Below are positions 17,341 to 55,471 of a DNA stretch of 64,000 bases, piece after piece. Numbering within the stretch: position 1 is the first letter of the stretch; each line of letters opens with the position of its first letter. Under the pieces are notes generated by a model. That model had not been told where the DNA came from and ran no database searches. It saw only the letters and a program-made list of their open reading frames with translations. Location: the IMG/VR virus record IMGVR_UViG_3300045988_155182; one strand, given 5' to 3'. The stretch is from a virus. Its lineage: Duplodnaviria; Heunggongvirae; Uroviricota; Caudoviricetes. The translations under genes were made by a program, and so were the position numbers.

Positions 17341-17383
17341 CTAATACTAGAAAACAATTTGTTTAAAAAACAAAGGAAAGCAC

Positions 17384-18724
17384 ATGACCGAACTTTGCCA
17401 TACAGGACGCGGGCTGTCCGAAGAGTTTGATGAAGATTTTCAGAACAGATTGACGGCCTATTTTTGTCGTGATCACGAGTTTCTTACTCGTGCTGGAGAT
17501 CTGGTTGTACCTAGCCAATTTGCCAATGCGGCCAATGCCATATTGGTTAATATGGTTTCGGGCTATTACCGTATGTACAAGAGCGCGCCCTCTTCATCTG
17601 CGATTCTGGATATGCTTAAGCGTGCGAAACGCGATAAGACTATCCGTGAGGAACTATTCGCCGATGTTGTTGCTGCGTTTAAGCGCATCCTTGCAGAAAA
17701 ATTGTCTGATACCTCGTACATGGTTGACCAGGTATCAACCTTCGCAAAAAGCGTAGCGTTTGATGATGCTCTGATTAAGGCTGCTGAACTGAAAGAGAAG
17801 GGCGACTTTCAGGGGGCGATGGCAATCATGGCCAAGGTTCAGCAGATTGGATCGAACGAAGCGACCGGAATCTATGACTACTACACCTCCGCAAGTGAGC
17901 GATTGAAAGCGCGTGAATATGAGGCTTCAGAGGAGTATGTGCCAAACAGCATTACAACTGGACTCCCTCTGCTCGATAGGTTGCTGTACCAAAAAGGCTG
18001 GGCGAAGCGTGAAATGGTGCTCTTCATGGGGTTCGCTAAATCCGGTAAATCGACCGCAATGGGTGAGTTTTCCATAAACGCAACGCTTGCTGGCTACAAT
18101 GTTCTGTATCTCTCGCTGGAGGTTCACACCAACATTTTGTCCGACCGCTTTGATGCAAGATTGTCGGAGACGGAAATGTCCAAGCTGGTGGAACGGCGCG
18201 ATGAAGTTCATCGTAAGTTGGCAGAGTTGGGAGCCACTAAGGGGATTGGTAGTTTGTGGGTTGTTGAGCGTCCGTCAGGAAGTATGTCACCTGCAGATCT
18301 GGACCGTATGCTTAACAGTATGAAAGCCAATGGCATGGTGCCTGACATGGTTGTTGTCGACTACGCAGATTTGATGCGTGCCAGTTATGACCTTCGTGAT
18401 GATCGCGCCAATATTCGTAGTATCTACACCGATTTACGTGCTCTTTATGACAAGCATAACGTTGCTGGGATCACGGCATCGCAGACAAACCGTGAAGGTG
18501 GCGCGTCAGAAGTTGCCACAATGATGCACGCCGCCGATAACATCGAAAAAGTACGTATTGCTGACCTGGTAATAACGATCAACAAAACCGAAGAAGAAGA
18601 AGCGAAAGGAGAGGCTCGTCTCTACTTTGCTGGTTCACGTAACCAGCAGGGTGGGATCAGCATTCGCGTTAAACAAAACCTCGAACAAATGCGTTTCATT
18701 GAGCGAATCTTAGACGTTACCTAA
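17384..18724 (+). CDS. Replicative DNA helicase (DnaB-like RecA-fold domain)
   Basis: Conserved AAAGGAAAGCACATG initiation context; Walker A GFAKSGKST, Walker B VVVDYADLM, ASQTNREG motif. Confidence 0.75.
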   Translation: MTELCHTGRGLSEEFDEDFQNRLTAYFCRDHEFLTRAGDLVVPSQFANAANAILVNMVSGYYRMYKSAPSSSAILDMLKRAKRDKTIREELFADVVAAFKRILAEKLSDTSYMVDQVSTFAKSVAFDDALIKAAELKEKGDFQGAMAIMAKVQQIGSNEATGIYDYYTSASERLKAREYEASEEYVPNSITTGLPLLDRLLYQKGWAKREMVLFMGFAKSGKSTAMGEFSINATLAGYNVLYLSLEVHTNILSDRFDARLSETEMSKLVERRDEVHRKLAELGATKGIGSLWVVERPSGSMSPADLDRMLNSMKANGMVPDMVVVDYADLMRASYDLRDDRANIRSIYTDLRALYDKHNVAGITASQTNREGGASEVATMMHAADNIEKVRIADLVITINKTEEEEAKGEARLYFAGSRNQQGGISIRVKQNLEQMRFIERILDVT

Positions 18725-18805
18725 AAAATAAGCGTGGAGAACACCTCCACGCTTGATTCATTTGTGAAACAACTTTTCTTTTGCCAAACCACAAAAGAAA
18801 AACAC

Positions 18806-19984
18806 ATGAGCCTTTATGTTATATCAACATTTAGGTTGGTCACAATATTGCCTGTTAAAAGTGGAATTATCGTGAGCGAGCTGAAAGAGCTAATTGCCGA
18901 ATTAGATTTTGAACAATGGTTGGATACTGAAGGTATCGTTTATCGACGTGGAGGCGTGAGTGCTCGCGGTCGTGAAGTGAATATCAAGGAATGTCCGGTA
19001 TGCGGCAGCTCCAACTGGAAGGTATATTTCAATCTGACCAGTGGCGTCGGCAAATGCTTTGCTGGTGATCATCCCGAAGAGATTCAGTTCAATAAGCTGG
19101 TCTTCCTCAAGCACTACAGCGGCAAATCACGACGACAGTTCGAGGAATATGTGCAGAACGCCCTTCTTTCCCAGGGGTGGGCACCAAAGAAAGAAGAGAT
19201 AGTGCTTGCAAGCACAGTCGAGTTAGAGGGACCACTTGCACTCCCTCGTCATTACGAACTTCCTATAGATGGCCGTCTTCCAGACTATCTGGTTGAACGA
19301 AACATATCGCCTGAAATGGCAAAGTATTTTGACCTACGATACTGCGTCGAAGGTAAGCACGCTTATGTAGATCCGTATACAGATCAGGTTAAAGGACAGA
19401 TATTCGATATGCGAATACTGATACCGGTTTACGATCTGGATGGGGTAATGAAGACATTTCAGGGACGAGACATTACCGGTACAGCAGAACGCCGCTACCT
19501 CTTTCCTATGCAGCTTCCAGCTTCAGGTAAATTTCTCTACAACGGCCATAATGCAGTCGGCAAACAGACTGTAGTTGTCTGTGAGGGTGCGTTCGATGTT
19601 ATGGGGGTCAAACGAGCTATTTTCGACGAAGAAACATTACGTGATTACGTGGAGCCAATAGGAACGTTCGGGATGCATCTATCTGGCAACACCACTCAGG
19701 ATGCAGAAGATCAGTTGGGCGCGTTCCTGACGCTCAAAGCGCGTGGATTACGTAATGTGATCATGATGTGGGATAGTGAAAAGCAAGCTATACGTAATAC
19801 GATGGCCGCAGCCAGGCGACTGACCAGTATTGGTCTTAATGTCAAAGTGGCGTGTTTGGGCGAGGAAGGACTCGACCCGGGCGATGCAACGCCAGAGCAA
19901 ATCATCAAAGCCTATTATCGGGCAAAACCGTATACCAAGCAGTTGGAGTTACAAAGCAAGGTTTTGGGCATTAAGGCTCTATGA
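18806..19984 (+). CDS. DNA primase (zinc-ribbon + TOPRIM)
   Basis: Conserved AAAGAAAAACACATG context marks the start at 18806; CPVCGSS...C zinc motif; TOPRIM-like CEGAFDVMGV. Confidence 0.6.
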   Translation: MSLYVISTFRLVTILPVKSGIIVSELKELIAELDFEQWLDTEGIVYRRGGVSARGREVNIKECPVCGSSNWKVYFNLTSGVGKCFAGDHPEEIQFNKLVFLKHYSGKSRRQFEEYVQNALLSQGWAPKKEEIVLASTVELEGPLALPRHYELPIDGRLPDYLVERNISPEMAKYFDLRYCVEGKHAYVDPYTDQVKGQIFDMRILIPVYDLDGVMKTFQGRDITGTAERRYLFPMQLPASGKFLYNGHNAVGKQTVVVCEGAFDVMGVKRAIFDEETLRDYVEPIGTFGMHLSGNTTQDAEDQLGAFLTLKARGLRNVIMMWDSEKQAIRNTMAAARRLTSIGLNVKVACLGEEGLDPGDATPEQIIKAYYRAKPYTKQLELQSKVLGIKAL

Positions 19985-20062
19985 TAACAATCACCTTTAA
20001 AATAAGTAGATGATTACTTATCTTTCTGTGAGAATACTTTCATCTGTTAGCTAGGAGTTGGT

Positions 20063-20839: not shown

Positions 20840-20894
20840 TCTCTCCGCGCGTCGTTTTTTACGCAAATAACGATAGGTAAGTACAAGATTATTT

Positions 20895-21377
20895 ATGGCG
20901 GTAGTTGTGAAAGCTGATTTGTCAAAAATCCCTTCTATTTCAGGAAATAACGGTTATTCACTTCGTTGTGAGGAAGTAAAGATAAACGGTGAGTCGGCAT
21001 ATTGCAGCTACTCCGTATGCCAGCACACCATTCTTGCCTTCAAAGAAAACCGTCTTCCTCGAACGTCTTTCCAGTCGTGCGCAACCGCTATTAAAGCAGG
21101 CAAATGCAAGGCGTTAAAAATGATGGTTGAAGAGATTCGTAAAGGAGAATCTCTGTATTTCGAAGATATGACCGCACTCATTAAGGAGGTTGAAGAACGG
21201 AATAAACAAGCCAGAACTATAAAACGAAAACGTGACAGTGTAACGATTAATAGCATGGTTAAGAAGAGCGCCACATCACAAACAGCGATCACTGACGTGT
21301 ATGCGGCGTTGATTGAAGAAACAACAAAAGAAACACATGAGCAAATCGATCAACATATGGAGGCAAAACAACAATGA
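20895..21377 (+). CDS. Hypothetical Cys-containing protein
   Basis: 160-aa ORF; stop overlaps the ligase start. Confidence 0.4.
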   Translation: MAVVVKADLSKIPSISGNNGYSLRCEEVKINGESAYCSYSVCQHTILAFKENRLPRTSFQSCATAIKAGKCKALKMMVEEIRKGESLYFEDMTALIKEVEERNKQARTIKRKRDSVTINSMVKKSATSQTAITDVYAALIEETTKETHEQIDQHMEAKQQ

Positions 21378-22696
21378 AAAAGTTGATCGCACTTAAGCAT
21401 AAGCTGGACGAAATGAAAGCTATGGGAACCAATGCAAAAAAAGAGGCATTGGCCAACATGGATGACTTCGAGCAAAGCATGGTTTCATTGATGCTCAACC
21501 CTTTCATCCGTTTTGGGGTAAAGAAATACAAAGTGGCAGAGCCGCTTAGTGAGTCCGTCCCAAGTGACGAAAAAGCCATTGATATACTGAATAAGCTGGC
21601 CTCTCGCGAGCTGACGGGGAACGCAGCAATAGCTGCTGTTGAGTCTATCGTGGCGTCAATGTGCGCCGATGGGCAGGACGTGTTCCGTCGTTTCCTCTTA
21701 AAAGATCCGAAAGCTGGCGTTGGGATTAGCCTATGCAACAAGGTTTTTGAAAATCCCATTCCGAAATTTGAGGTGCAGCTGGCGTCACCGTATAAAGAAA
21801 AAGGCGACAAATACCCCTTCAAGCCAAATCCTAAAGCCAAATGGCCGATGATTGGCAGCCTTAAGCTCGATGGTTTGCGAGTAATTTGTGAGGTTATTGT
21901 TGACGAGGAAGAGGTGAACTTCCTTTCTCGTACTGGTAATCCAATCACGTCTCTCGATCACCTAAAGCCAGCCATGCTCGAATTAGGCAAACTTTCAGGC
22001 CACAAACACATCTTCTTCGATGGTGAAGGAACAGCCGGTTCATTTAACCAGTCCGTATCTGCATTGCGCAAAAAGAACGTGCAGGCAATTGGCGCTATTT
22101 ATCATGTTTTCGACTTCTTCCTACCGGAATGGCGGGCACAGGCTAAATCCAAAGAGTATGCAAAGACAGGTATAAAGCTGAAAGAGCGCCTGGCTATGCT
22201 CGTGGCGTTGTTCAAAAACGATCGCAGTGAAGGCTACGCACAAGACATTCACCTGCATCCGTTCTACATCATCCATAGCCACGAAGACTTCATCGAACGC
22301 TTCATGAAACGCCTGGACGATAACGAAGAAGGGGAGATGGGCAAAGATCCGAACTCTGTTTACGAGTTTAAACGTACCCGCAGCTGGTGGAAGTTAAAAG
22401 ACGAAGATTCAGAAGATGGTGAAATTATCGATTTTGAGCCTGGCGACCCGGACTCTGGTTTTGCCAACACGCTTGGAAAAATTGTTATTCGTCTTGAAAA
22501 CGGCGTCATCGTTCGTGCGAGTGGCATTAAGCATAAATATCTGGACGAGATCTGGAACAACAAAGAGAAGTACCGTGGTCGTATTGTCGAGGTTCATTGT
22601 CACGAGAAAACACCTGATGGCAGCTTACGCCACCCACGACTGAAATGGCCGCGTTGCTTACGCGATACCGAAGATCGAATCGGAGATAAAGAATGA
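21374..22696 (+). CDS. ATP-dependent DNA ligase
   Basis: Adenylation motif I KLDGLR within SLKLDGLRV; ~440 aa. Confidence 0.7.
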   Translation: MKKLIALKHKLDEMKAMGTNAKKEALANMDDFEQSMVSLMLNPFIRFGVKKYKVAEPLSESVPSDEKAIDILNKLASRELTGNAAIAAVESIVASMCADGQDVFRRFLLKDPKAGVGISLCNKVFENPIPKFEVQLASPYKEKGDKYPFKPNPKAKWPMIGSLKLDGLRVICEVIVDEEEVNFLSRTGNPITSLDHLKPAMLELGKLSGHKHIFFDGEGTAGSFNQSVSALRKKNVQAIGAIYHVFDFFLPEWRAQAKSKEYAKTGIKLKERLAMLVALFKNDRSEGYAQDIHLHPFYIIHSHEDFIERFMKRLDDNEEGEMGKDPNSVYEFKRTRSWWKLKDEDSEDGEIIDFEPGDPDSGFANTLGKIVIRLENGVIVRASGIKHKYLDEIWNNKEKYRGRIVEVHCHEKTPDGSLRHPRLKWPRCLRDTEDRIGDKE

Positions 22697-22908
22697 TCGT
22701 ATTAAGTAAAAGGGAGAAAGAAACGCTTCATGAAATCAGTAAGTGGCCGGAGTTCCCTGAGTACTGGAAGCCTAAAACGCGAGCTAAGTTAGAGCGTTTA
22801 GGGTTGGTTGCAAACGTTTCTGAAACGTGGTGCTCGGCCAACTACCAGTTAACTGATAAAGGGAAAGTATTGCTACAGCAATTAGTAGAATCAGGAGTGT
22901 TAAAATGA
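22693..22908 (+). CDS. Hypothetical small protein
   Basis: ATGA-coupled to the ligase stop. Confidence 0.4.
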   Translation: MIVLSKREKETLHEISKWPEFPEYWKPKTRAKLERLGLVANVSETWCSANYQLTDKGKVLLQQLVESGVLK

Positions 22909-23344: not shown

Positions 23345-24122
23345 AATTACAATGATAAGTATTTACTTACTTATCTTTTATGTATAAGATGACTTTGTTT
23401 TCGTTGAGACGCGACTGTTTGAACTTAAATACAAGTGCAAACGAAGAAGTCTATCTGGCAGTAGCCTAATAAGCCAAACACCAGCGAGGTCAGTTTCCAG
23501 CCTCGTTACCGAAATGGGATACACTGAGCGAGTGTGATTACAGAACGCAGGAGGGAACATGAATGTTCCCTCCGATGAAGTAACAGAATGGGCGGTTGGT
23601 ATATTTTCAACTCCATATGACTCCCGGATTCTTAGCCACTGACCGCCCATCCTGTTACGTCATTTTGTTCAATTATGTCGTTTATACTGGGTTAAAAAGC
23701 GGCGACGTAGCCCGGCTGGTATGGTTAGCCAGCACACAACGTTGAGGCCATTACATTTTTATCAATTCTAAGGTTCTATTCACAGAGATACCGGCGAGCG
23801 TTGATATGTAACATGTTGGGCAAACATTCAATCGGAGTAGTGGCCTCAACGTTGTGAAGACAGGATTGTTGTGTAGGTTTAACCACTGTTGCCATTGGTG
23901 CCTGTTTTCACAACAAATGATTCCATACATCACATTGTATAAATTACAAAGTAGGTGCTGTCCTCAGAAACATCATCTACTTAAAGAGTTTGCCTTCTAC
24001 TATTGAGCGAAGTCGAAAGCGTCTGGCACTAACGAAAAGTGCAAGTAGCGGTGCGTTTCCTGGCAGAAACTAAACCGTCGCGATTGGCACTGTTGAGTAA
24101 TGAATACAGGCAGTGCTGAATT

Positions 24123-24197
24123 GATGGTGTAGCTCAGCGGTAGAGCAGTTGGCTGTTAACCAACTGGTCGGTGGTTCGAATCCACCCACCATCGCCA
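24123..24197 (+). tRNA. tRNA-Asn (anticodon GTT)
   Basis: Cloverleaf folded by hand: acceptor gatggtg/caccatc, D-arm gctc-agcggtag-gagc, anticodon loop ctGTTaa, T-arm ggtgg-ttcgaat-ccacc, 3' CCA encoded. Confidence 0.85.
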
Positions 24198-24199
24198 AT

Positions 24200-24275
24200 G
24201 CCGGTTTAGCTCAGTTGGTAGAGCGCCTGCCTTGTAAGCAGGATGTCAGCGGTTCGAGTCCGTTAACCGGCACCA
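24200..24275 (+). tRNA. tRNA-Thr (anticodon TGT)
   Basis: Acceptor gccggtt/aaccggc, anticodon stem cctgc/gcagg with loop ctTGTaa, T-loop ttcgagt, CCA encoded; 2 nt after tRNA-Asn. Confidence 0.85.
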
Positions 24276-24763: not shown

Positions 24764-24764
24764 G

Positions 24765-26302: not shown

Positions 26303-27406
26303 ATGAAAAATAGCTTTGACAGAGCACGCGCTGCGGAGAACACCTCAAAAGAGGCGATAGAGTATCTCGAAAGAGCATCTCAAATGCAGGCCGTTATGAT
26401 CTCCCAGGTCAGCAATGACATGAGATTCTCGGACGCATTCATGTTATTCACTCGCTTATCTCTGCTGATAACCAGACGTCGGCCAGAGATCGCTGTTCAT
26501 TGTATTTTGATACATGTTTTGCCGCACATTGCCGATGTAAAAGTAAGTGACATTAATAGGTTCATGGTGAACCAACTGGTCAACCCACTAATACTGGATG
26601 GCAAAATTGTTATGGGCCGCCGCGTTTTCTCTCTGATGAAGCAGTTCCTTAGCTGGTGCGCCTTCCAGGGGATGATAGACGTGTCACCGTTGAACGATAT
26701 GTCACTTAACAAAGTTGCCGGTGGCGCAAAGCCCACACCTCGCGAGCGGAAGCTGACCGACGCAGAGGTATGGGTGTTCTGGAATATATGGGACTACTTC
26801 AATGTGTGTGCTGGTACAAAATGGGCGGCCAGGCTATGTCTTGTATCCGCAAGACGACCTGACGAAGTACTGCGGGCTAAAAAAAGTGAGTTCAATCTTA
26901 AGCGTGGGGTTTGGAATCAAGGCAAGAGGAACAAATCTGCCCGTGAGCATTCTCTGCCTTTAAGCTCATTAATGCGCACTTGTATTGAAGAGTTGTTCGA
27001 ATATGGTAAAGACAGCCAGTGGCTCGTGCCTTCGAATAAAAAAATCGGGAAAGACCTTCCTATGTCTAAAGTGGCAATAGCCCAGGCATTACGTCGTATT
27101 CTGGAACGACCAGAACTGATGGAGCTTGAGCCATTTACACCCCGAGATTTGCGCCGTACTGCGCGTAGTTACTTCCCAGCATTAGGCATAAGCCAGGAGG
27201 TATCACGTAAAATCATGAACCACAGTCTTGAGGGGATAGATCGGGTCTACGACCGGCACGATTATATGGACGAGATGCGAGACGCCTTAGAAAGTTTCTC
27301 GACGTACATCGCATCAATCGTAGAGCAACCGGATTTAGACGAAATTGACCACAAATTTAAGGGAGATCGTCTATCAACAGAGCTTATTCGTGTAAATTTT
27401 TCATAG
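26303..27406 (+). CDS. Tyrosine recombinase / integrase
   Basis: C-terminal catalytic region with RDLRRTARSY and HSLEGIDRVYDRHDY (H-x-x-R...Y pattern); start codon uncertain. Confidence 0.7.
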   Translation: MKNSFDRARAAENTSKEAIEYLERASQMQAVMISQVSNDMRFSDAFMLFTRLSLLITRRRPEIAVHCILIHVLPHIADVKVSDINRFMVNQLVNPLILDGKIVMGRRVFSLMKQFLSWCAFQGMIDVSPLNDMSLNKVAGGAKPTPRERKLTDAEVWVFWNIWDYFNVCAGTKWAARLCLVSARRPDEVLRAKKSEFNLKRGVWNQGKRNKSAREHSLPLSSLMRTCIEELFEYGKDSQWLVPSNKKIGKDLPMSKVAIAQALRRILERPELMELEPFTPRDLRRTARSYFPALGISQEVSRKIMNHSLEGIDRVYDRHDYMDEMRDALESFSTYIASIVEQPDLDEIDHKFKGDRLSTELIRVNFS

Positions 27407-27787
27407 AGACTTTATGGCCTCAACAACCTTTTGTGATGCGCCTTTCTCTTTACCGAATCGCTCGTTATATGCAGCAAGAACCTGTTTTTCGTCCTCGTTA
27501 AGAGGAGCAGTGCCTTCTTTGTATAAAAATGCTGCGAGTTCGGGTTGGCGTTCTTCCAGCACCATCATCATAAGACGACTTGGCTCAATGCCCAGTGCCA
27601 GCGCCAGCGGACGAACCTTATCGATAGGCAAAGGAATTTTGCCGCTTTTAATTAAAGAAAGGTTGTTGGCGTTTTTATACCCAATTGTTTTGGCTATCTG
27701 GGCCTGGCTCATAGGTGAGGATTCAATCAACCCTGCGATAAAAGCAGCGTAGCGACTTTCTATAAATTCAATCTTGTTATCAGACAT
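27401..27787 (-). CDS. XRE-family HTH transcriptional regulator (repressor-like)
   Basis: HTH SQAQIAKTIGYKNANNLSLIKSGK; convergent with the recombinase, divergent from the downstream block. Confidence 0.6.
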   Translation of the reverse strand: MSDNKIEFIESRYAAFIAGLIESSPMSQAQIAKTIGYKNANNLSLIKSGKIPLPIDKVRPLALALGIEPSRLMMMVLEERQPELAAFLYKEGTAPLNEDEKQVLAAYNERFGKEKGASQKVVEAIKSL

Positions 27788-28251: not shown

Positions 28252-28349
28252 CCCCTCTTCTCCCTGCGCGAATGGCTTAGTTCCCTGTTCGCGCAGTGCT
28301 ACATTAAACACACTAGTAAATAATTTGTTTTCATAACAAAGGATTAGCC

Positions 28350-30473: not shown

Positions 30474-30493
30474 TGATAAGTAACTACTTATCA
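30474..30493. promoter_or_regulatory. Perfect copy of the dispersed intergenic palindrome TGATAAGTA-AC-TACTTATCA
   Basis: 9-bp perfect inverted arms; lies between the vWA gene stop and the AAA gene. Confidence 0.5.
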
Positions 30494-30553
30494 TAGTTAA
30501 TGGTATATTTATATAAGAACTTGAACGCTCATTAGAGAACAAAGGAAAAGCGC

Positions 30554-31789
30554 ATGACTACTACTGCACTGCAAAATGATAAAAATCCTTCTGATTACCT
30601 TGTTTGCAAGTGGTGCGGCAAATCATTTCACTATTTTAAGTCCCATGTAGCCAATGGTAATTGCGAGGGCATTCCTGAGTCAGTAAAAAATGCCGATCCT
30701 GACACCGTACTGAAAATGTACACAACGCAGTTTCCAGATGAACCAACGCTATCGAAAAAGGCACTTGATGCAATTCAAGCTAAACGTGCCGAGCAAAAAA
30801 GCGAAATGGCGAAATCTTCTGGCTTGACCAGTAGCCCAGGCTACACAGGCACAGTTGAGTACAAGACAGATCTGGTCGCAGCTCACGAACTGCTAAACGT
30901 AACGGTGGAAGAACTCGGAACAAAACGTGGGACGCCGCTCATGGTTAGCGTCAACGTCAATACGCCGTATCCAGAGTTCGTTCCAGAAGTGAAGAAGGGC
31001 TACGTATATGGCGACTTCGAACTGATCAAAGATATTTTCATGATGCTTGAACTTGGCATACCTGGCTATTTGTGGGGTCATGCAGGAACAGGCAAATCGT
31101 CATTGCCTACACAGCTATGTGCTTTGCTCAATCGTCCGTTGATCCGTGCCCAACATACAGCATCAATGGAAGAGGCACATGTTACGGGGCAAATTCTGGC
31201 GCGTGATGGCTCTACGTATTTCGAGCCTGGCTTGCTTGCGCTCGCAATGAAGCATGGCTGGGTTTACCTCGCGGATGAATACGACTTTGCGTTTCCACAA
31301 ATTCTTGGCGTGTATCAGCCAGTGCTGGAAGGTGAGGCGTTGGTCATCAAAGAGGCAACTCCAGAATGGCGTCGCATTACTCCGCATGAACGGTTTGCTT
31401 TCATTGGCACTGGCAACACAAACGGTTCTGGTGATGAAACCGGCTTGTACCAGGGTACAAACATCCAGAACGCCGCGAACTTTTCGCGTTTTGGCATCGT
31501 TTCGAATGTGAAATACATGAGCAAAGAGGCAGAGATCAACATGTTGATAAATGCCGGTATCGTGGATGAATACGCAGAAAAGATGGTTAAGTTTGCCGGT
31601 ATCGTTCGCGATGGATACGAAGAACACCTTATCAGTCAGCCAATTGGCCCTCGTGAACTTTTGTTGTCGGCCAAGATTGGAATGATGCGAGGCGACTTTG
31701 TGACAGGTATTGAGCGTTCTTTCATTAACAAACTCCCTTCAGCTTCTGCACAAGCGGCTCGTGAAGTTGTTCAAAAAATATTTGGTTAA
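30554..31789 (+). CDS. AAA+ ATPase (CobS/MoxR-like)
   Basis: Walker A GHAGTGKSS; N-terminal Cys cluster CKWCGKS...C; conserved initiation context. Confidence 0.6.
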   Translation: MTTTALQNDKNPSDYLVCKWCGKSFHYFKSHVANGNCEGIPESVKNADPDTVLKMYTTQFPDEPTLSKKALDAIQAKRAEQKSEMAKSSGLTSSPGYTGTVEYKTDLVAAHELLNVTVEELGTKRGTPLMVSVNVNTPYPEFVPEVKKGYVYGDFELIKDIFMMLELGIPGYLWGHAGTGKSSLPTQLCALLNRPLIRAQHTASMEEAHVTGQILARDGSTYFEPGLLALAMKHGWVYLADEYDFAFPQILGVYQPVLEGEALVIKEATPEWRRITPHERFAFIGTGNTNGSGDETGLYQGTNIQNAANFSRFGIVSNVKYMSKEAEINMLINAGIVDEYAEKMVKFAGIVRDGYEEHLISQPIGPRELLLSAKIGMMRGDFVTGIERSFINKLPSASAQAAREVVQKIFG

Positions 31790-31969
31790 TCGTGCGTAAA
31801 GGATGTTTCGGCTCTCTTATCGCTGCTTCTGAAACTGGCAAGGCTTGTCTGGGGTGTCCAGACAAGCCCGATTGTCACCAATCAGCAAAAGAAGTTGCGA
31901 TTTCGATGTATGGGAAGTTCGTAGGCTTCCCCAATGACAAAATCAAAAAAACCAGAAAGGTAAAAACAC

Positions 31970-37871: not shown

Positions 37872-37988
37872 TTTTTGATAGATAATAAGTAAGTACTGAT
37901 CTATCATTTAACAGCTCGAAAGAGCCACGAATGAACGAAAGCCCAACGCGCATAGCGCCATCGGCCAAATCACAACAAGGAGAAACAC

Positions 37989-39017
37989 ATGTCTAAGACA
38001 TTACTTGATTTGCTTAACAAAACTCGTGAAGACATTGCCGCCAAACGTGGTAACAACGTTGATCTGACTCGCTTAAAAGATGGCGTCAACTATATCCGTA
38101 TCTTCCCGAATAAGGACGACCCAAACGGTAAGTTCTTCCAGACTTTCGGTATGCACTACGTTAAGTATCAGAACGAGGACGGTAAAGAAGCCACCAACGC
38201 TTATATTTGTGAGCAACATACTCACGGTCGCGCTTGTCAGCTATGCGAAATGGTGATGGAAGGTCGCGCTCGTCACAAGGGTAACAAAGCAATGGAAGAG
38301 CGCATCGGCCAAATGCGCGCCACTCCTCGCTACCTGGTCAATGGCATTCTTTCTGCTCGTGAGGATTTCGCAGATGCTGAGAAATGCCAGTTAATCGAGC
38401 TGCCGTCTACTGTATTCGATGATATCTGCAAAGCAATCACCGAAGACATCGCTGATGATATCGGCAATCCACTGAGCAAAGAGGAAGGCTACGCATTCCT
38501 GATTAAACGTACTGGCTCTGGTCGCGATACCAAATATGACGTCTCGCCTAAGCGTAAAGTCTACAAAGGCGATATCGAAGATAAATTCTGGAACACCCAG
38601 CATGATCTGATCGCATACGCAAATCAGGCTGATGAAACTCGTCTTCTGTCGACAGTTCGCACTATGGGTCGTCTGATTGGCATCGCTGCACCAACTGCCG
38701 CAGCATCTGCACCAGCAATTTCCTCAACCGCGAAAACATCGGCTGCGGCACTACCTGGATTTGGCTCTGTCACTGGTCATACAGAAGGAGCGACGGCTGT
38801 AGCAACCGCGCACACACCGGCTTCTGAACCAACCAGTCTGGTTGATGAAGAAATCCTCCGTGCCGTTGAAACTGAATTTAAACCAGAGGCAAGTTCCGCT
38901 GCCGTTGCCGTATCAGTCAAAGAGTCTGAAGCAGTCGCAGCGACATCTGTAGCAACCGCATCTGCGACGGAAGATGAAGGTCTGGATGACCTACTGAGAG
39001 AGCTGGACTCTCTGTAA
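37989..39017 (+). CDS. Single-stranded DNA-binding protein (T4 gp32-like)
   Basis: Zn-binding His/Cys cluster CEQHTHGRACQLCEM; IRIFPNKDD block; Ala/Ser-rich linker and acidic C-terminal tail EDEGLDDLLRELDSL. Confidence 0.65.
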   Translation: MSKTLLDLLNKTREDIAAKRGNNVDLTRLKDGVNYIRIFPNKDDPNGKFFQTFGMHYVKYQNEDGKEATNAYICEQHTHGRACQLCEMVMEGRARHKGNKAMEERIGQMRATPRYLVNGILSAREDFADAEKCQLIELPSTVFDDICKAITEDIADDIGNPLSKEEGYAFLIKRTGSGRDTKYDVSPKRKVYKGDIEDKFWNTQHDLIAYANQADETRLLSTVRTMGRLIGIAAPTAAASAPAISSTAKTSAAALPGFGSVTGHTEGATAVATAHTPASEPTSLVDEEILRAVETEFKPEASSAAVAVSVKESEAVAATSVATASATEDEGLDDLLRELDSL

Positions 39018-41393: not shown

Positions 41394-41408
41394 ATCTCTT
41401 GAAAATAT

Positions 41409-41424
41409 ATAAGTACTTACTTAT
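41409..41424. promoter_or_regulatory. Perfect copy of the dispersed palindrome ATAAGTA-CT-TACTTAT
   Basis: Between the recA terminator and the next gene. Confidence 0.5.
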
Positions 41425-41456
41425 TATTTTCGCATAACAACCACATAGGAAAACAC

Positions 41457-41657
41457 ATGATCAAAATCTATCTATTGGCAGTAGCCACAGGCCTTTCAGT
41501 GGCTCTCATCTACGGTTTACTGGTTCCGTCGCTGATTTCTACCAAGAGTGATTTAGCCGTCATGTTTGGAGTTATCGTTGGTTTTGGTGCTCCTGTAATC
41601 GGTCTTATTGCTGGTCGTAAGTTTATCAACTCATTAATCAAAGCAAAGGGGAAATAA
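41457..41657 (+). CDS. Small two-TM membrane protein (NfeD-like partner of the SPFH protein?)
   Basis: 66 aa with two hydrophobic helices; 4 nt upstream of the SPFH gene. Confidence 0.5.
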   Translation: MIKIYLLAVATGLSVALIYGLLVPSLISTKSDLAVMFGVIVGFGAPVIGLIAGRKFINSLIKAKGK

Positions 41658-42507: not shown

Positions 42508-42532
42508 AGGCGTCCAGTTGGACGCCTTTTTT
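42508..42532 (+). terminator. Rho-independent terminator after the SPFH gene
   Basis: aggcgtcc-agtt-ggacgcct then ttttt; same stem as the terminators at 39033 and 41369. Confidence 0.8.
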
Positions 42533-42582
42533 ATCGCAATTATCTTATTAAGAAAACAATTTGTTTAAAGGGTTAAGAAAAT

Positions 42583-43008: not shown

Positions 43009-43063
43009 TCGCCTATTCATAACTAACAAAATAAGTAAACACTAACCACAAAAGGAAAAACAC

Positions 43064-43339
43064 ATGAGAGTTTTAGTTCGAATCGTTACCAGCACTGTCT
43101 ATGACGTGTTTCCGGTTTTTATGGTCAAAGCCGATGGCCTTAACGACGAAGAAACTGACGCGCTGATCCAGCGTATTCTCGTTGAATATACAGGTCATGA
43201 CGCTGATTCAGTGATGGTTGATGATGATGGTGTTTGTTGGCATAACGGCAACTGTTGGTACGTAGAAGAGACTCAACAAATCAGTGATGAAGATGCCGAA
43301 CATCTTGAGCGTATTTTAAGCATCAGCACTTTTGAGTGA
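43064..43339 (+). CDS. Hypothetical protein
   Basis: AAAGGAAAAACACATG start context. Confidence 0.5.
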   Translation: MRVLVRIVTSTVYDVFPVFMVKADGLNDEETDALIQRILVEYTGHDADSVMVDDDGVCWHNGNCWYVEETQQISDEDAEHLERILSISTFE

Positions 43340-43554: not shown

Positions 43555-43890
43555 ATGAAGGCCATCCCATTCGCGCTGTTGTTCCTTTCTTCGATCGTTG
43601 TGGCCGACACCACTGTTTATCAGTGTGAAATGTCTGTAGCCGACGTTAAGAATGGCGCTCTTACCGACGTCATAAAAGCACCATATGGAGCGATGGTCGT
43701 AGACAGCGGCGACCAGTTCTATGTTGTGCGTGACGATCGAGTGTTGTCATCCCCATATCTCACAAATCGTAATGGCAAATTAACCGGCGTCGGAGAAGAC
43801 CACTTCGTATACAACAAATACAAGGGCTTCTATGGCGTTCACGCTTCTCAGCAAAGCTACCTTTTCGATGACTGCAAGGAGGTTGGATAA
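43555..43890 (+). CDS. Hypothetical secreted protein
   Basis: N-terminal signal peptide MKAIPFALLFLSSIVVA. Confidence 0.5.
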   Translation: MKAIPFALLFLSSIVVADTTVYQCEMSVADVKNGALTDVIKAPYGAMVVDSGDQFYVVRDDRVLSSPYLTNRNGKLTGVGEDHFVYNKYKGFYGVHASQQSYLFDDCKEVG

Positions 43891-44102
43891 TGGCATTAAC
43901 ACTGGCAGGTCTGGAAATCGAGAAAACAAGCGGCTACTGGCGTGCTAAGGGTTTCAAGCAGCCTGGCATTCTTGAGCGTCTGGAACGTGAAGATGGGTAT
44001 ATCGTCCACCAGCGGCGTGAATGGCGTATGTACGATCCAGAAACAGGAAAACTGACTACAAAAGCCGGAACACTTTGGGGTCTGTTGAAGAAAATACACT
44101 AA
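43890..44102 (+). CDS. Hypothetical small protein
   Basis: 70-aa ORF; start overlaps the upstream stop. Confidence 0.4.
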   Translation: MALTLAGLEIEKTSGYWRAKGFKQPGILERLEREDGYIVHQRREWRMYDPETGKLTTKAGTLWGLLKKIH

Positions 44103-44110: not shown

Positions 44111-44590
44111 ACCACTGCGGTGAGTAGTCTGCTCACCGCATTCGTATCCAGCTCATTATCCACTGTAGTCAGTAACAAAACCTTCCTACATATCTGCTAA
44201 CCACTGTAGCGAGTAGACAGCCTTTCATTCGCATCAAACAACCACTATGGTGAGTATTGGAGTGAGATGTCCAGCGGGTATCCACTATGGTGAGTAAGCC
44301 TTTGCTGTTTTCAGTGGATATCCACTCGCCACAGTGGATACGCTCAAAGATGAGGGCGACAACAACCACTATAGACAGTAAATTTTCCAAGATACCCAGT
44401 GACCACTAACCTCGCAGCCCTTGTTTCATCAGTGTTAGTGATCACTAACATTTAATTCAGTATTTGCATTCTACTGCCTACAGTGGTTATCAACAGATAA
44501 CGATACTCACTATAGTGGATAGCGAATTACAGATATAAGTAAGGCTCACTACAGTGGATAGTGAGCCTTACTACTAACTACAGTGGTTGG
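44111..44590. repeat. Iteron array (about 11 copies, both orientations) downstream of repA; incA-like
   Basis: Repeated (A/T)CCACT(A/G)T(A/G)G(T/C)GAGTA at 44111, 44158, 44199, 44241, 44281, 44321, 44365; inverted copies at 44480, 44506, 44546, 44578. Confidence 0.8.
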
Positions 44591-44591
44591 G

Positions 44592-45647
44592 CTATTTGCG
44601 AGTCTTTGCCTTGCGCAACTCTTCGAGAAGCGCCAGTTCTTCTTTACTCAACATGACCATTTTGCCTTCTTTTTCGTCAGGCACAACGTCGATAATGTCA
44701 TCTTGATTCTCATCTGGGAGGCTATATTCCGTCTCATCATTATCGATTTTTGTTGATATTTGTGCCTGGCGTAACTTTGGCCGCCTATAGTGGATGACGA
44801 AGTAGACCGAGTTTCCGCGCTTAACTTCCGTGTAATCGAGATATCCTATCTCTCGCAGCTGTTCCATAGCCTTTCTTACCGTCGCATTCTGAGTAATAGT
44901 GCGACTTGTCAGATTAAGTCTGGCGCGTAAACGGGCTAGTGATATTGGTGCCGGATCAGGCGGCAAACTTTCAATAAAAGTATAAAGCGCCTGAGCGGAT
45001 TCTTTTCTTGAGAGTTCGTTTATAGCCCGGAGTTGCAGAAGAACCTTTTTGTCGAACTGGTAGAGTTCGAAAATCTTGGGATCTGCTTTCAGTTCGACCG
45101 TATCGTGCTTGACACTATATTTTGCCGTTTGCACAAGATGCGTTACGTAAAACTCATCAGAGCCTTTGCTACGGAACGAGATGGTATTTGTGGCAATACG
45201 GCTTAGCGAACTGTCCAGGCGTTTGCGTAACTTCGCTGATGACCTGGCGGTCGGAATGCCACACAGCCTTACAAACTCAACGAACGGCAACGTGACAGTA
45301 TCGCCAACGACCTTGTGTTTGGCAAACGCGTGGATTATTCCCACCCACGTTTTAAAGTCGTTATCCATATCAAGCCGAAGGCCAGAGATCCTTATGTCTT
45401 CGTACCCTTCGGCTTTTGCCAGAGACAGCTGTTTGAGTTCAGCAGAGGCATCCATAGAGACCATTTGCCCCTTTCTTCCTCTGGATGTCGATTTCAGCGT
45501 CGGAACGAAGAGGCCCAGACGCATCAAAGCAACAGGCTGAACAGTGTTATTAGTGTTAGGAACCAACGTAACAACTTCGCCTGTCTTTTTATCTGTTTCT
45601 GAAAATGCTTCAACGATCGCTATGTTTTTATTGCCGTTTTCGCTCAT
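44592..45647 (-). CDS. repA: Replication initiator protein (RepA-like, iteron-binding)
   Basis: 351-aa ORF flanked on both sides by iteron arrays; size and context typical of Rep_3-type initiators. Sequence family not verifiable by eye. Confidence 0.6.
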
Positions 45648-45694
45648 TCCAAATGTCTCTTGTTATTCGACGGCTTTGGTGGCCTTTGCTGATT

Positions 45695-45807
45695 ACAGTG
45701 GATAGTAGCACTCATCACAGCGGTTATCCTACCGTCTATAGTGGTTTTTCTCCTCTCTATAGTGGTTGCTTTGCTCCCTATAGTGGATTATTCGCTCTCT
45801 ATAGTGG
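45695..45807. repeat. Iteron array upstream of repA (incC-like): CTATAGTGG repeated at exact 21-bp spacing
   Basis: ctatagtgg at 45736, 45757, 45778, 45799, plus degenerate copies at 45697 and 45716. Confidence 0.8.
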
Positions 45808-45839
45808 ATATCGATCATGTCTGAAGGCAGATGGCACAA

Positions 45840-46310
45840 CGGTTTGAGGTGGGCGGGGATCTTATTGGGTCTTTATGGGTCTCTTTGGTTCTCTTTGTGA
45901 TCTGAATTACTGGATCGGGCCTGTGGATAAAAATCAGAGGATTTCAAGAACAGGTAACTCTACTCTTCTGTGGATATTTAAGGACATAAGAATCATGACT
46001 AAGAGTAGAGTTTAAAATATATCTATGTATATCAGTATGTTAATGAAGAATTAAGTCATTAAGTTATCCATAAAAGACAATGTGCTCTACTCTCTACAGT
46101 GGATATATACAGCTCTCCAGAGTGGTTGTTTTACTCTTCATAGCGGTTATTCAGCTCTCTACAGAGGTTTCTTTGCTCTCCATAGTGGATGGCAACACCC
46201 TTTCAGACCAGTAACCGCAACGGCTAGAGGCGATCGGGGATCTCTTTGGATCTTCTATTTGATCTTACTTGGGATCTCTTATTTGGATCTATCCAGTGGA
46301 TAACTGGGAT
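45840..46310. other. Origin-like region: DnaA boxes, a GATC cluster, A+T-rich DNA and a third iteron set
   Basis: Perfect DnaA box TGTGGATAA at 45922-45930 and 1-mismatch boxes near 45969, 46064, 46296; at least 6 GATC within 46224-46295 (mostly GGATCT). Confidence 0.6.
46094..46188. repeat. Third iteron set, five degenerate copies at about 21-bp spacing
   Basis: ctacagtgg, ccagagtgg, tcatagcgg, ctacagagg, ccatagtgg at 46094, 46117, 46138, 46159, 46180. Confidence 0.65.
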
Positions 46311-47035: not shown

Positions 47036-47289
47036 CCCTCCAGATCGTATATTGGCGTAGATAGAATCTACGCCCCCTCAAAATAGCTCTCATAGCGTTC
47101 TACAGTGATCCTGTCTTATTTTTAGTCATACAGACAAGCAAAGTTGCGCCACGATAAATAGGTATATACTTACTTATAAATTTTGTATATTAAGGCGCTC
47201 GTTTCATTCCTAACATACCGTTATGCATAGTTGTTTACCTCCTCATTGCTCTTAGAATTTGTATCAAAATAACCACAAAGGAAAAACAC

Positions 47290-48375
47290 ATGACTTTGCC
47301 ATACGGCGTCATTTCTGACTGCCACTACCACAAATGGGATGCGTTCTCCACGACGAACGCTGAGGGGCTTAACTCCAGACTTGAAATACAGTTGGAAGCA
47401 ACGAAAGAAGCAGCCATCGCCATGAAGAAGGCCGGTTGTAAGTACATGTTGGTTGCCGGTGATACATTTCACGTCCGAGGAACTGTGTCCCCTTCTGTTT
47501 TGCATTACGTAACTGAAACGTACAAGTGGATTATCAACGAGCTTGATCTGACAGTAGTAATGCTGGCCGGTAATCACGATCTTGAAACCAACGATTCAGT
47601 ATATAGCGCCAACGCAGCAGCATCGCTGAGTTCTATCGGCGTGGTAATCGTATGTGGCAAGCGCCCACACTCAATAAAAATTGGCGATGTGACTGTCCAC
47701 CTGATTAGCTGGCGTAACAATCATGCGGAGCTTATCAGCGATCTGAAAGCATTACGTAAGAGCGTAGAAGGTGATAATCATGACGTTGTTATCCATACAT
47801 CCATTAACAAAGCCATTCCAACAATGCCTGACGTCGGTATCGATGCGCAGGAGTTAAAGGATATCGGCTTTCGTCTCGTGCTTAGTGGGCATTACCACAA
47901 CCACAAAGAGGTCATTCCTGGAGTTATCAGTGTCGGTGCACTGACTCATCAAAATTGGGGAGATGTTGGATCTCTGGCTGGCTACATGATCGTAAACCCG
48001 GACGGCAGTTTCAGTCACTACGAAACCAGTGCGCCTAAATTCATTAACCTGGAAGATGATGTTGCTGATGACCAAATTCGCGGCAACTACGTGCGTTTCC
48101 GCGCCGTAATTGAGAACGATGAAGAAGGCATTAAGTACCAGAACATCCTCAAAACAATGGGTGCAAAAGGTGTCGTGTGCAACTTCATCCGTAAGTCATC
48201 AATGATGGAAGGTACAGCCAGCACAACTGAAACCAGCAAAATCGATAGCCTGGGAGAGTCGGTATCTGCTTATTGCAAGATTGTCCACGATACTGACGGC
48301 GGATTTGATCTGAGCAAATTGGATATTTTGTGTCAGGAAATCCTCACCGAAGCGGAGAGTTCGGAGGCTGTGTGA
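47290..48375 (+). CDS. sbcD: SbcD/Mre11-family nuclease
   Basis: Calcineurin-like phosphoesterase motifs GDTFH, GNHD, SGHYH; AAAGGAAAAACACATG start context. Confidence 0.8.
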   Translation: MTLPYGVISDCHYHKWDAFSTTNAEGLNSRLEIQLEATKEAAIAMKKAGCKYMLVAGDTFHVRGTVSPSVLHYVTETYKWIINELDLTVVMLAGNHDLETNDSVYSANAAASLSSIGVVIVCGKRPHSIKIGDVTVHLISWRNNHAELISDLKALRKSVEGDNHDVVIHTSINKAIPTMPDVGIDAQELKDIGFRLVLSGHYHNHKEVIPGVISVGALTHQNWGDVGSLAGYMIVNPDGSFSHYETSAPKFINLEDDVADDQIRGNYVRFRAVIENDEEGIKYQNILKTMGAKGVVCNFIRKSSMMEGTASTTETSKIDSLGESVSAYCKIVHDTDGGFDLSKLDILCQEILTEAESSEAV

Positions 48376-51254: not shown

Positions 51255-51263
51255 GGAGACTAT

Positions 51264-54222: not shown

Positions 54223-54328
54223 CATATGGTGGGGGATATCCCCACCTTCTCTTTGATTTGTAAGCCTTGTTTAAACACATAAGATAACAACTTGTTTAAA
54301 CGCACCAAAAAAGAAAAAGGAAAAACAC

Positions 54329-55471
54329 ATGTCATATTCAACGTTCCGTTTGGGTGCTAATGATGCAACCAAAGAGCCTATGTTCCTCGGACAATCTGTC
54401 AACGTGGCACGTTACGATCAGCAAAAATACCGTGATTTTGAAAAGTTGATTGAACGTCAATTGTCTTTCTTCTGGCGGCCGGAAGAAGTTGATATTTCGA
54501 GCGATCGTATCGACTTCAACACGAAGCTGCGGGACCACGAACGTCACATTTTTCTGAGCAATCTCCGTTATCAAACGTTACTCGATTCAGTTCAGGGACG
54601 TAGTCCAAATGCAACGCTGCTGCCGCTTATCTCTATTCCTGAACTGGAAACGTGGGTTGAAACGTGGTCTTTCTCTGAGACTATCCATAGCCGCAGCTAC
54701 ACCCACATTATTCGTGGCATGGTGGACGATCCGAGCATTGTTTTTGACGGTATTGTTACGGATGAAGAAATCATCAACCGAGCGATCAGTATCTCTGCTG
54801 AATATGACAGGCTTTATGGGATGACCTGCGAGCGCCAGTCGTTAGGTGAGAAGGAGTTTGAACGTCTGTACGTAAATGAATATGGCTGGGAGCCATACCC
54901 TTTGCACCGTCAGCTTTTCCGCACGTTGGTGTCCATTAATGCGCTTGAGGCGATCCGTTTCTATGTAAGTTTTGCATGTACGTTTGCCTTTGGCGAACGG
55001 AAGTTGCTTGAGGGTAACACCAAAATTATGCGCTTTATTGCCCGTGATGAAGCTCTGCATTGCGAAGGAACTGAACGCATGATCCGCTTCATGCGTACCG
55101 GTCGCGAAGGTTTATTGTGGAAAGAGATTGCTGCTGATGAAGAAAACGTCATTTACGACACCATGAAATCAGTCGCCGAACAAGAAATGAACTGGGCAGA
55201 CTATCTCTTCAAAGACGGTTCGATGATTGGTTTAAACGCGGATATTCTCAAAACCTATGTAAAATACCGCACCAATCTGGCTATGAATCGTCTTGGCCTG
55301 AAGGCTTTATTTCCAGAGGTTACCACCGATCCGCTGGTCTGGATGAACAAGTGGTTGTTAACCGACACACTGCAAATTGCACCACAAGAGGCAGAGCAAA
55401 GCACATATCTGGTAGGTCAGATCGATTCTACCGTGGATAAGGCTTCTCTAAGCCAGTTTGCTGACCTGTAA
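54329..55471 (+). CDS. nrdB: Ribonucleotide reductase class Ia small subunit
   Basis: Long blocks match E. coli NrdB from memory ([47 protein letters not shown]). Confidence 0.95.

Follow-up and report, generated by a model that had tools for sequence, protein, structure and literature searches.

Two candidate cis-elements, an operator-like DNA dyad and a conserved start-codon context, in an SSU5/pHCM2-type phage-plasmid

The DNA analyzed here is a stretch of 64,000 nucleotides (nt) from a Caudoviricetes virus (IMG/VR record IMGVR_UViG_3300045988_155182). We call this whole stretch the window, and positions refer to it unless another genome is named. Two short sequences recur upstream of its genes. 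One is a start context of the form GGA, a run of A, and CAC followed directly by ATG. The other is a 13-base-pair (bp) palindrome, AAACAA-N-TTGTTT, which we call the dyad. Our analysis confirmed that the observation made in the initial annotation is real, but that it consists of these two independent elements. The reading we favor, with a probability of roughly 0.55, is that they are two separate cis-elements of an SSU5/pHCM2-type phage-plasmid, the dyad being a DNA operator and the start context acting at the RNA level. We found neither element described in the searchable literature, nor any description there of gene regulation in SSU5/pHCM2-like phage-plasmids.

The dnaE gene and a 16-kilobase (kb) stretch are 96–99% identical to Escherichia phage Cyrano, which is the plasmid pLF82 of E. 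coli LF82. The corresponding identity to the Salmonella phage SSU5 is 78–84% and to Klebsiella phage-plasmids 76–80%. Based on these matches, the window is a piece of an SSU5/pHCM2-type phage-plasmid of E. coli. We used the annotation of Cyrano to place 61 gene starts in the window. Further genomes compared were SSU5 (100 kb of its 103-kb genome), Klebsiella pJN2-26, a divergent K. oxytoca plasmid, and a Moellerella plasmid; 21-kb loci from Yersinia, Kluyvera, Buttiauxella, Morganella, and Xenorhabdus were also examined.

The start context

The 16-mer AAAGGAAAAACACATG is present in three exact copies in the window (43051, 47277, and 54316), and four more copies have one or two mismatches (18793, 30541, 31957, and 37976). 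All seven are on the + strand and end in the ATG of an open reading frame (ORF). Only 1.1 matches were expected from shuffled sequences, and none of 100 shuffles reached seven. Looser copies precede the helicase (17372–17386, AAAGGAAAGCACATG) and the gene at 41457 (41445–41459). Near-identical start contexts had been proposed for at least nine genes in the initial annotation, and the nine named there were all confirmed:

17372–17386, + strand: DnaB-like helicase, AAAGGAAAGCAC-ATG; kept in the SSU5, Klebsiella, and K. oxytoca relatives
18794–18808, + strand: primase leader/primase, AAAGAAAAACAC-ATG; 22-codon leader in frame with the annotated GTG at 18872
30542–30556, + strand: AAA ATPase, AAGGAAAAGCGC-ATG; the relatives read ...AACAC-ATG
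31958–31972, + strand: dnaE, AGGTAAAAACAC-ATG; inside an upstream small ORF (31792–31995)
37977–37991, + strand: gp32-like single-stranded DNA-binding protein (SSB), AAGGAGAAACAC-ATG
41445–41459, + strand: 66-amino-acid membrane protein gene, ATAGGAAAACAC-ATG
43052–43066, + strand: 91-amino-acid gene, exact consensus
47278–47292, + strand: sbcD, exact consensus; the 20-mer CCACAAAGGAAAAACACATG is common to this gene and the one at 43064
54317–54331, + strand: nrdB, exact consensus

An unsupervised k-mer count returned AAAACACATG and its neighbors as the top 10-, 11-, and 12-mers of the 64-kb window, with no copy on the reverse strand. The 9-mer AAACACATG is found at nine gene-start sites, and its sole other copy (21331) lies within a coding region. 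An intergenic gap of at least 43 nt precedes each of the nine genes. A scan of viral contigs for the exact 15-mer gave single chance copies in many unrelated contigs and was hence uninformative; among the matches listed, three contigs had two copies (two of approximately 107–111 kb and one of 74 kb).

The AAACAC-AUG site overlaps the start codon of nine genes in the window and of 13 in the whole Cyrano genome, where CAC is the commonest triplet at positions −3 to −1 (13 of 123 genes). A Shine–Dalgarno (SD) sequence of the GGAAA/AGAAAAA type with an A-run accompanies 11 of these 13 CAC genes, compared with 5 of the 110 other genes (Fisher p = 2e-10). The parts of the start context thus occur together and are not independent preferences.

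In the primase gene, the ATG of the motif (18806) opens a conserved leader of 22–23 codons with the pattern MSLY.I...RL..ILP.K (18806–18874). The leader is fused in frame to primase in the window and in Cyrano. In SSU5 and Klebsiella, it is a separate ORF that ends on the primase ATG with an ATGA overlap. The primase start assigned earlier at 18806 is therefore reasonable for the window because the leader is in frame, but the motif really serves the leader. A look-alike of the start context, AAAGAAACAC-ATG (ATG at 21337; region 21323–21396), is located within the 3′ end of the gene at 20895–21377. It opens a 19-codon ORF that overlaps the ligase start (21374). SSU5 has a 12-codon version ending on the ligase ATG, and Klebsiella has none.

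Conservation of the start context and properties of the leaders

We aligned the upstream regions of orthologues from the window, SSU5, and Klebsiella, anchored at the ATG. Positions −6 to −1 (AAACAC) are identical in the three genomes in seven to nine of the nine genes, which amounts to 49 of 54 gene-positions. The SD of the same genes slides by 1–3 nt between the genomes and takes the forms GGAAA, GGTAA, GGAGA, and GGGAA. In 20 control genes from these genomes, the SD is the best-kept part, and the spacer positions are identical in only 3–9 of the 20 genes (37 of 120 gene-positions). A generic SD is thus inadequate as an explanation, since the ATG-anchored AAACAC, which is not part of the SD, is kept while the spacers of control genes drift. 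It had been allowed from the outset that the motif might be no more than a strong generic SD consensus; the alignment speaks against this. The start context very probably has a function beyond that of an SD, and the alignments indicate that it is under sequence-specific selection beyond ribosome pairing.

The divergent relatives agree with this. Proteins of the K. oxytoca plasmid are 43–80% identical to those of the window (SSB 43%, SbcD 71%). The sequence GAAAACACATG is among the top k-mers of this plasmid, and all 12 copies are at ORF starts. The set of genes that carry it differs: a RecA-like gene, which has the motif only there, and several small genes are included. Individual genes thus gain and lose the motif, whose sequence does not change. 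The C at −3 and the C at −1 are invariant in the nine window genes and in thirteen K. oxytoca genes. Relatives from Moellerella, Morganella, and Xenorhabdus have the A-rich SD context AAAGG(T/A)AAAA but not the CAC. The A-rich SD context therefore looks ancestral, and the AAACAC block looks specific to one clade.

Leaders with the start context are rich in A and C, with a G+T content of 26% compared with 50% in other genes. Their predicted folding is weaker (minimum free energy −5.3 versus −8.5 kcal/mol), and the unpaired probability around the start is higher (0.69 versus 0.53). The five leader and dyad regions that were folded showed no RNA structure beyond that of shuffled sequences (z of −0.4 to +1.0 for the dyad region), and no Rfam family matched at any start context or dyad. 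The only sequences able to pair with at least 13 of 15 leader positions are the opposite strands of motif-like sequences, a few chance look-alikes included. As neither the window nor the whole of Cyrano has a separate complementary locus, a trans-encoded antisense RNA resembling P1 c4 was rejected.

The low structure of the leaders, significantly below that of other genes, and their poverty in G and U would suit a start context that acts purely in cis, as an optimized unstructured ribosome-binding cassette giving strong and uniform initiation on stand-alone genes. The nine genes cannot rely on translational coupling because of the gaps that precede them, and the A-rich SD context is shared with the Moellerella, Morganella, and Xenorhabdus relatives. 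In E. coli, initiation is enhanced by spacers rich in A and by leaders rich in C and A. However, a lack of structure does not need an exact CAC, and the two C residues are invariant. This preference is not seen at other genes of the element that follow a gap, and their spacers drift. The Moellerella lineage, with hosts of the same order, does without the CAC, and the invariant block keeps its position relative to the AUG, unlike the SD, which slides. We regard a purely cis-acting cassette as a serious contender, at somewhat below even odds. A dedicated trans-factor that reads the start context has a little less than an even chance in our estimate. Between an enhancer in cis and an operator for a dedicated factor, we lean slightly to the factor, with the FljA-like protein described below as the first suspect.

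The dyad and its predicted promoter cassette

The dyad occurs five times in the window. The 13-mer AAACAANTTGTTT has exact copies at 13324, 17352, and 42554 and copies with one mismatch at 28318 and 54285:

13324–13336: AAACAAGTTGTTT, upstream of parA (13372), 35 nt before the ATG
17352–17364: AAACAATTTGTTT, upstream of the helicase, 19 nt before the ATG
28318–28330: AAATAATTTGTTT, upstream of a 702-amino-acid CobT-like gene (28350)
42554–42566: AAACAATTTGTTT, upstream of the DUF7238 gene at 42583 and after a terminator-like hairpin (42508–42527)
54285–54297: TAACAACTTGTTT, upstream of nrdB and after a terminator-like hairpin (54228–54246)
54266–54276, + strand: additional half-site CTTGTTTAAAC; the copy within the nrdB dyad follows 25 bp later

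The palindrome had been placed 20–30 nt upstream of several starts. The five copies bear this out, with two corrections: one copy begins at 28318 rather than 28325, and the gap from the end of the dyad to the ATG is 16–35 nt. The reported duplication of CTTGTTTAAAC at 54266 and 54291 was also correct, with exactly two copies against 0.09 expected. The claim that the palindrome often precedes the start context did not hold. Both elements are present only at the helicase and nrdB (two of nine genes), and the dyads at 13324, 28318, and 42554 precede genes with other start contexts (parA at 13372, 28350, and 42583).

In the window alone, a 16-mer form of the palindrome is weakly significant. The whole Cyrano genome contains nine exact dyads (0.05 expected) and 18 with at most one mismatch (0.58 expected). 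Fifteen of the 18 are intergenic, though non-coding DNA makes up 13% of the genome, and for 16 of the 18, the next annotated + strand gene starts no more than 73 nt downstream. SSU5 has 20 copies, Klebsiella pJN2-26 has 17, and the K. oxytoca plasmid has 20. Conservation of the arms across 75 sites is 92% or more, and the central base is even (A 18, C 22, G 19, T 16). Near-invariant arms with a free center are the pattern expected for a dimeric protein on double-stranded DNA. Two annotated starts in Cyrano, at 95805 and 97903 (L002:45805, 47903), are inside or upstream of a dyad. The geometry of dyad, SD, and ATG suggests that the true starts are at approximately 95826 and 97972.

Alignment of 32 sites revealed a repeated, predicted promoter cassette around the dyad. 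It consists of a (G/A)CCTTT box, 10 nt, a −10 hexamer, approximately 13 nt, the dyad, 3–35 nt, the SD, and the ATG. The −10 is typically GATAAT or GAAAAT, often after TGn (an extended −10), and the stretch of approximately 13 nt has the consensus aACACCAAcAAGA. A second class of dyad directly precedes the box, in many cases immediately following a terminator-like hairpin. Promoters with both classes have them at a center-to-center distance of 51 bp, in three lineages. A pair spaced by 25 bp precedes the terminase operon, and the half-site repeat at nrdB has the same spacing; the 25-bp spacing, too, recurs in three lineages. On the + strand, the box-N10-(−10) pattern has 13 matches against 6.4 expected, and 10 of the 13 are intergenic. 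The (G/A)CCTTT box, 10 nt upstream of the −10 hexamers, is where T4 MotA boxes lie. The dyad at 28318 is preceded by the extended −10 TGcTACATT (28297–28305). Full sigma-70 consensus matches between 12000 and 64000 were fewer than in shuffles (25 versus 37.5, 25 versus 27.6, and 10 versus 18.3). Two predicted promoters precede genes with the start context:

47237–47258, + strand: predicted sbcD promoter, ACCTCC-N10-TAGAAT; kept as GCCTCT-N10-TAACAT in SSU5 and GCCTGT-N10-TAAAAT in Klebsiella
41399–41427, + strand: sigma-70-like promoter, TTGAAA-17-TATTAT, upstream of the start context at 41457; a member of the second palindrome family (see below) lies in the promoter spacer

At sbcD, the box and the hexamer are kept in the three genomes, and the remainder drifts. 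The start context is found behind promoters of both types and is thus not a promoter part. The suggestion of a shared promoter or 5′-untranslated-region element therefore fits the palindrome, which belongs to a predicted promoter cassette, but not the start context. We judge it probable that the dyad is a DNA operator or promoter-cassette element.

Other inverted repeats were also seen. A second inverted-repeat family, TA(A/G)GTA-N2..8-TAC(C/T)TA, has 13 matches at 10 window loci, compared with 0.025 expected:

4668–4685, 10723–10740, 16569–16586, 20003–20020, 23356–23369, 30477–30490, 41410–41423, 47159–47172, 61395–61408, and 63610–63627: second inverted-repeat loci

These are mostly 30–130 nt upstream of + strand genes (tail fibre, holin, AAA ATPase, 41457, sbcD, dam, and others). 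The copy at 41410 fills the spacer of the TTGAAA-17-TATTAT promoter, and GGTAAGcaCTTACC, which is similar to this family, is upstream of the CI-like gene. The family is probably another operator or activator site. An inverted repeat CTGCGCGAA-N15-TTCGCGCAG (28264–28296) overlaps the −35 region of the promoter that precedes 28350. The equivalent place in SSU5 is occupied by another inverted repeat of different sequence (CTGTACGAACAG...CTGTTCGTACAG), so that the symmetry is kept and the sequence is not.

Proposed mechanism and expression in lysogens

In the mechanism that we prefer, the dyad would serve as a double-stranded-DNA operator, and the regulator binding it would be a dimer encoded by the plasmid, most likely a repressor. 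From the geometry of the cassette (box, −10, approximately 13 nt, dyad), it would lie at about +6 to +18 of the predicted transcript start, and some promoters would have a second copy 51 bp away, upstream of the box. With 17–20 dyads per genome, the regulon would be dispersed; parA, the helicase, and nrdB would belong to it together with the terminase operon and numerous small early genes. The start context would be an RNA-level element on approximately 13 genes, mostly of replication, recombination, and nucleotide metabolism. It comprises a modest SD (AAGGA), an A-run of 3–6, an invariant CAC abutting the AUG, and an unstructured A/C-rich leader, and it would act regardless of promoter type. 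A specific factor would read AAACAC-AUG and set the translation of these mRNAs as a group. Our data establish that both motifs exist, how they are built, how far they exceed chance, and how deeply they are conserved, along with the family and modeled fold of the candidate FljA-like protein; we infer the transcript start points, repression rather than activation, and any pairing of a protein with a motif.

The transcriptome of LF82, a Cyrano lysogen, is available (PMC9928086, S1 Table). Most dyad-preceded genes and all start-context genes are near background in it. Genes expressed in the lysogen include toxin–antitoxin pairs, repA, the CI-like gene, an S24 peptidase, CYRAN_117, and the FljA-like gene. 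The last has a log2 value of approximately 4 in overnight LB and 7–8 in other conditions. In Cyrano (OV696614 approximately 89270–89310; L002:39270–39310), a LexA-box-like sequence, TACTGTATGTGTATACAGTA, is directly upstream of the S24 peptidase gene CYRAN_98. This gene is strongly expressed in lysogens, and the box may link it to SOS induction.

Candidate binding proteins

The candidate reader of the start context is encoded outside the window:

Cyrano OV696614 100780–101301 (L003:780–1301), minus strand: FljA-like gene CYRAN_114

CYRAN_114 (173 amino acids) is a full-length member of the Pfam family Flag1_repress (FljA; E = 1e-80), with 35–40% identity to the real FljA. FljA is reported to prevent translation of fliC mRNA (PMC2652032; bioRxiv 10.1101/2025.10.27.684867). 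The FljA-like gene is a core gene: all SSU5-like phage records have it, as do 831 PLSDB plasmids. Counts by genus follow those of SbcD (Klebsiella 341 versus 352, Enterobacter 92 versus 93, Yersinia 62 versus 63). It is also found in hosts without flagella, including Klebsiella and Y. pestis. In 2006, Yamamoto and Kutsukake reportedly found that purified FljA binds fliC mRNA and blocks its translation in vitro.

The alignment of the FljA-like protein showed two similar halves. The AlphaFold model (predicted local distance difference test (pLDDT) 83, predicted template modeling score (pTM) 0.81) has two α-β5 units, and its best 30 PDB matches are all Hfq, with a root-mean-square deviation of approximately 1.2 Å over 57 residues. 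The FljA family is thus predicted to adopt two tandem Hfq/Sm domains. We found no paper linking FljA to the Hfq fold. The modeled fold supports RNA binding in general. That the dedicated factor for the start context would be this protein is a doubtful but specific proposal. It is unlikely, though conceivable, that a FljA-family protein recognizes AAACAC-AUG and co-ordinately represses the translation of phage replisome, recombination, and deoxynucleoside triphosphate genes. Such repression could serve as a safety lock of the plasmid state or as an early-to-late shut-off.

Two lines of selection gave candidates for the dyad-binding protein. By phyletic pattern, with presence in every lineage that has the dyad and no detection in Moellerella, these are the 71-amino-acid regulator, its 50-amino-acid neighbor, and a Cra-like 70-amino-acid protein (43890–44102). 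By conservation together with lysogenic expression, these are a 119-amino-acid gene and CYRAN_117. Two of these candidates are:

22693–22908, + strand: 71-amino-acid protein, putative transcriptional regulator in Cyrano; present in all dyad-bearing lineages and undetected in Moellerella
14040–14399, + strand: 119-amino-acid gene downstream of parA; 91–93% identical in SSU5 and Klebsiella and expressed in lysogens

The structure model of the 71-amino-acid regulator (pLDDT 59) was too poor to use. None of the candidates has a recognizable domain, and PHROGs added no functions. The CI-like helix-turn-helix repressor (27401–27787) was considered and set aside as unlikely; together with its integrase, it is absent from the compared part of SSU5.

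Several observations weigh against the two-element reading or against its details. The window dyads at 13324, 17352, and 42554 have weak −10 candidates, and the position of the dyad relative to +1 rests on predicted −10 hexamers. The parA operon, which has a dyad, is moderately expressed in the lysogen (PMC9928086), so that simple lysogenic repression is not the whole story. In the same data, the 71-amino-acid regulator is not expressed. The CI-like gene is an unlikely binder because SSU5, which lacks it in the compared 100 kb, has 20 dyads. For the start context, no trans-factor is strictly needed because an unstructured A-rich leader is a known route to efficient initiation. The mRNAs proposed as targets are already near background in lysogens, and translational control would therefore be a second layer or have its role in lytic growth. 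The start-context motif was not seen in the mRNA or the upstream region of the FljA-like gene itself. The fliC leader (AUAGGAUAACGAAUC-AUG) and promoter resemble the two motifs only loosely; the E. coli leader, AUAGGAUAAC...AUC-AUG, has only AGGA(U/A)AAC in common with the start context, a match that a generic SD could equally give. Finally, the Moellerella lineage has neither motif, yet it has a 27%-identical FljA-family member at the syntenic place. Presence or absence of the FljA-like gene thus does not discriminate.

Further alternatives

The dyad could instead be an activator site or part of a phage-specific promoter, as the box-N10-(−10) geometry recalls the MotA middle promoters of T4. 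The depletion of full sigma-70 consensus promoters (25 versus 37.5 and 10 versus 18.3 expected) and a box at the MotA-box position rather than at −35 are in keeping with this. The silence of dyad genes in lysogens also fits a missing activator, and the regulator at 22693 has the right phyletic pattern and is not expressed in lysogens. However, the main dyad lies downstream of the −10 (at about +6 to +18), which is not a normal position for an activator, and many of the −10 hexamers are extended (TGn) and need neither a −35 nor an activator. The flanking pairs 51 bp apart are typical of repression loops. A Pfam scan of 66 hypothetical and regulatory proteins from Cyrano and the window gave no sequence-level match to RegA (Translat_reg), MotA, or AsiA. 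We consider an activator site improbable.

Less likely still is the T4-like reading, in which the gp32-like SSB or a RegA-like protein would use the start context as its translational operator. This idea draws on the T4-like replication and recombination genes of the element (gp32-like SSB, UvsY, UvsW, and SbcCD resembling gp46/47), on a gene set that functionally resembles the RegA regulon, and on unstructured leaders that are a substrate for gp32 binding. The scan of 66 proteins without a RegA-family match argues against it, as do the lack of a pseudoknot, other structure, or an Rfam match in the SSB leader and the invariant CAC, which non-specific binding to single-stranded RNA does not explain. 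A shared translational operator, as put forward in the initial annotation, is a live reading in its general form, since AAACAC is conserved beyond the SD and a candidate family exists; the T4-like versions of it fall short, with no RegA homologue and no gp32-type structure, and the palindrome is a separate element.

An RNA-level role of the dyad, as an A-tract plus a U-tract, or as a small hairpin, bound by the FljA-like protein and forming one composite operator with the start context, is comparably remote. The predicted transcript would contain the dyad just 5′ of the SD, and tandem Hfq folds are predicted in the FljA-like protein; proteins of the Hfq type bind tracts rich in A or in U. Instead, the arms mirror each other exactly, a C in one matching a G in the other, and the center is free, which is the signature of a double-stranded-DNA dyad. 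Copies upstream of the box would be outside the predicted transcript, the RNA folds no better than shuffles, and seven of the nine start-context genes have no dyad.

The least credible alternative is that the uniform start contexts are functionless by-products of recombination, boundary sequences copied between cassettes by concerted evolution: the genes at 43064 and 47290 do have 20 identical nt in common and the A-run is homogenized by lineage (four A's in 12 of 13 K. oxytoca copies, five in most E. coli-lineage copies), but the similarity does not reach beyond approximately 22 nt from the ATG, what is conserved is the 6 nt adjoining the ATG and not a junction, and purifying selection is needed for orthologous genes to keep the motif when divergence between lineages is saturated (SSB 43% identical).

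Comparison with known systems

The proposed start-context regulon is similar to that of T4 RegA, in which one short RNA element overlapping the start codon is found on many early mRNAs of replication and nucleotide metabolism. The differences are that no RegA homologue was found among the 66 scanned proteins and that GGA-A(3–6)-CAC-AUG is far more uniform than the loose AU-rich sites of RegA. The likeness to autogenous control of T4 gene 32 lies in a gp32-like SSB whose gene has an unstructured leader. However, there is no 5′ pseudoknot here, the same type of leader occurs on many genes, and gp32-type binding needs no sequence-specific conservation. With the FljA/fliC system of Salmonella phase variation, the plasmid protein shares the family Flag1_repress, whose characterized member blocks a specific mRNA via its leader. 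It differs in its 35–40% identity and in being a core gene even in non-flagellate hosts, and the proposed targets are approximately 13 plasmid mRNAs as opposed to one host mRNA for FljA.

The dyad recalls the scattered short operators of P1 C1 and of RK2 KorA and KorB, here as approximately 20 copies over a plasmid-prophage of approximately 105 kb, with sites upstream of replication, partition, early, and late genes. The KorB operator has the same 6-1-6 dyad format. The sequence differs from those of all three; the main site here follows the −10 and may have a partner 51 bp upstream, and P1 C1 operators are asymmetric whereas the dyad is symmetric. The dyad regulon is best read as a known kind of system with a new sequence. 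Many of the cassette promoters resemble extended −10 sigma-70 promoters (TGnGATAAT or TGnGAAAAT, with no −35 hexamer at 17 bp), but the conserved (G/A)CCTTT box 10 nt upstream does not belong to the standard form of these promoters.

Other features of the window

Iteron-like repeats (CTATAGTGGAT and CAGTGGATA; 44312–46294) flank repA (44592–45647, minus strand), and related repeats are present in the distant Morganella, Xenorhabdus, and Moellerella relatives. A full-length match to the Rfam cspA thermoregulator (188 bits, 35767–36185, minus strand) implies a cold-shock gene with a regulatory leader. This stretch is unannotated in Cyrano, and Klebsiella pJN2-26 annotates Csp there. An Rfam IS009 sRNA match (190 bits, 10432–10630, + strand) is located just before the lysis genes. 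There are two tRNA genes at 24123–24272 (+ strand). The 14-mer AAATGATTCCATAC is repeated in the tRNA/integrase region (22903, 23915, and 26171 on the + strand, and two more copies on the other strand).

Implications

SSU5/pHCM2-like phage-plasmids are commonly carried by clinical Enterobacteriaceae. The marker genes used here are present on more than 800 PLSDB plasmids, among them S. Typhi pHCM2 and the backbone of Y. pestis pMT1. The two motifs and the additional palindrome family provide a first sequence-level map of phage-plasmid regulons, with promoter and operator coordinates, better start-codon calls, and a conserved leader ORF before primase. If the start context is purely cis-acting, it would be a compact, portable, and strongly conserved initiation cassette for E. 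coli and its relatives. If instead the FljA-like protein reads it, the protein would be a new Sm/Hfq-fold repressor acting on the translation of multiple targets, and the genes under it would form a RegA-like regulon centered on an Sm-fold protein. Such a finding would assign a function to a gene that has long carried the label "flagellin repressor" in hosts lacking flagella, and would suggest that the flagellar FljA and the plasmid regulator have a common origin in mobile elements.

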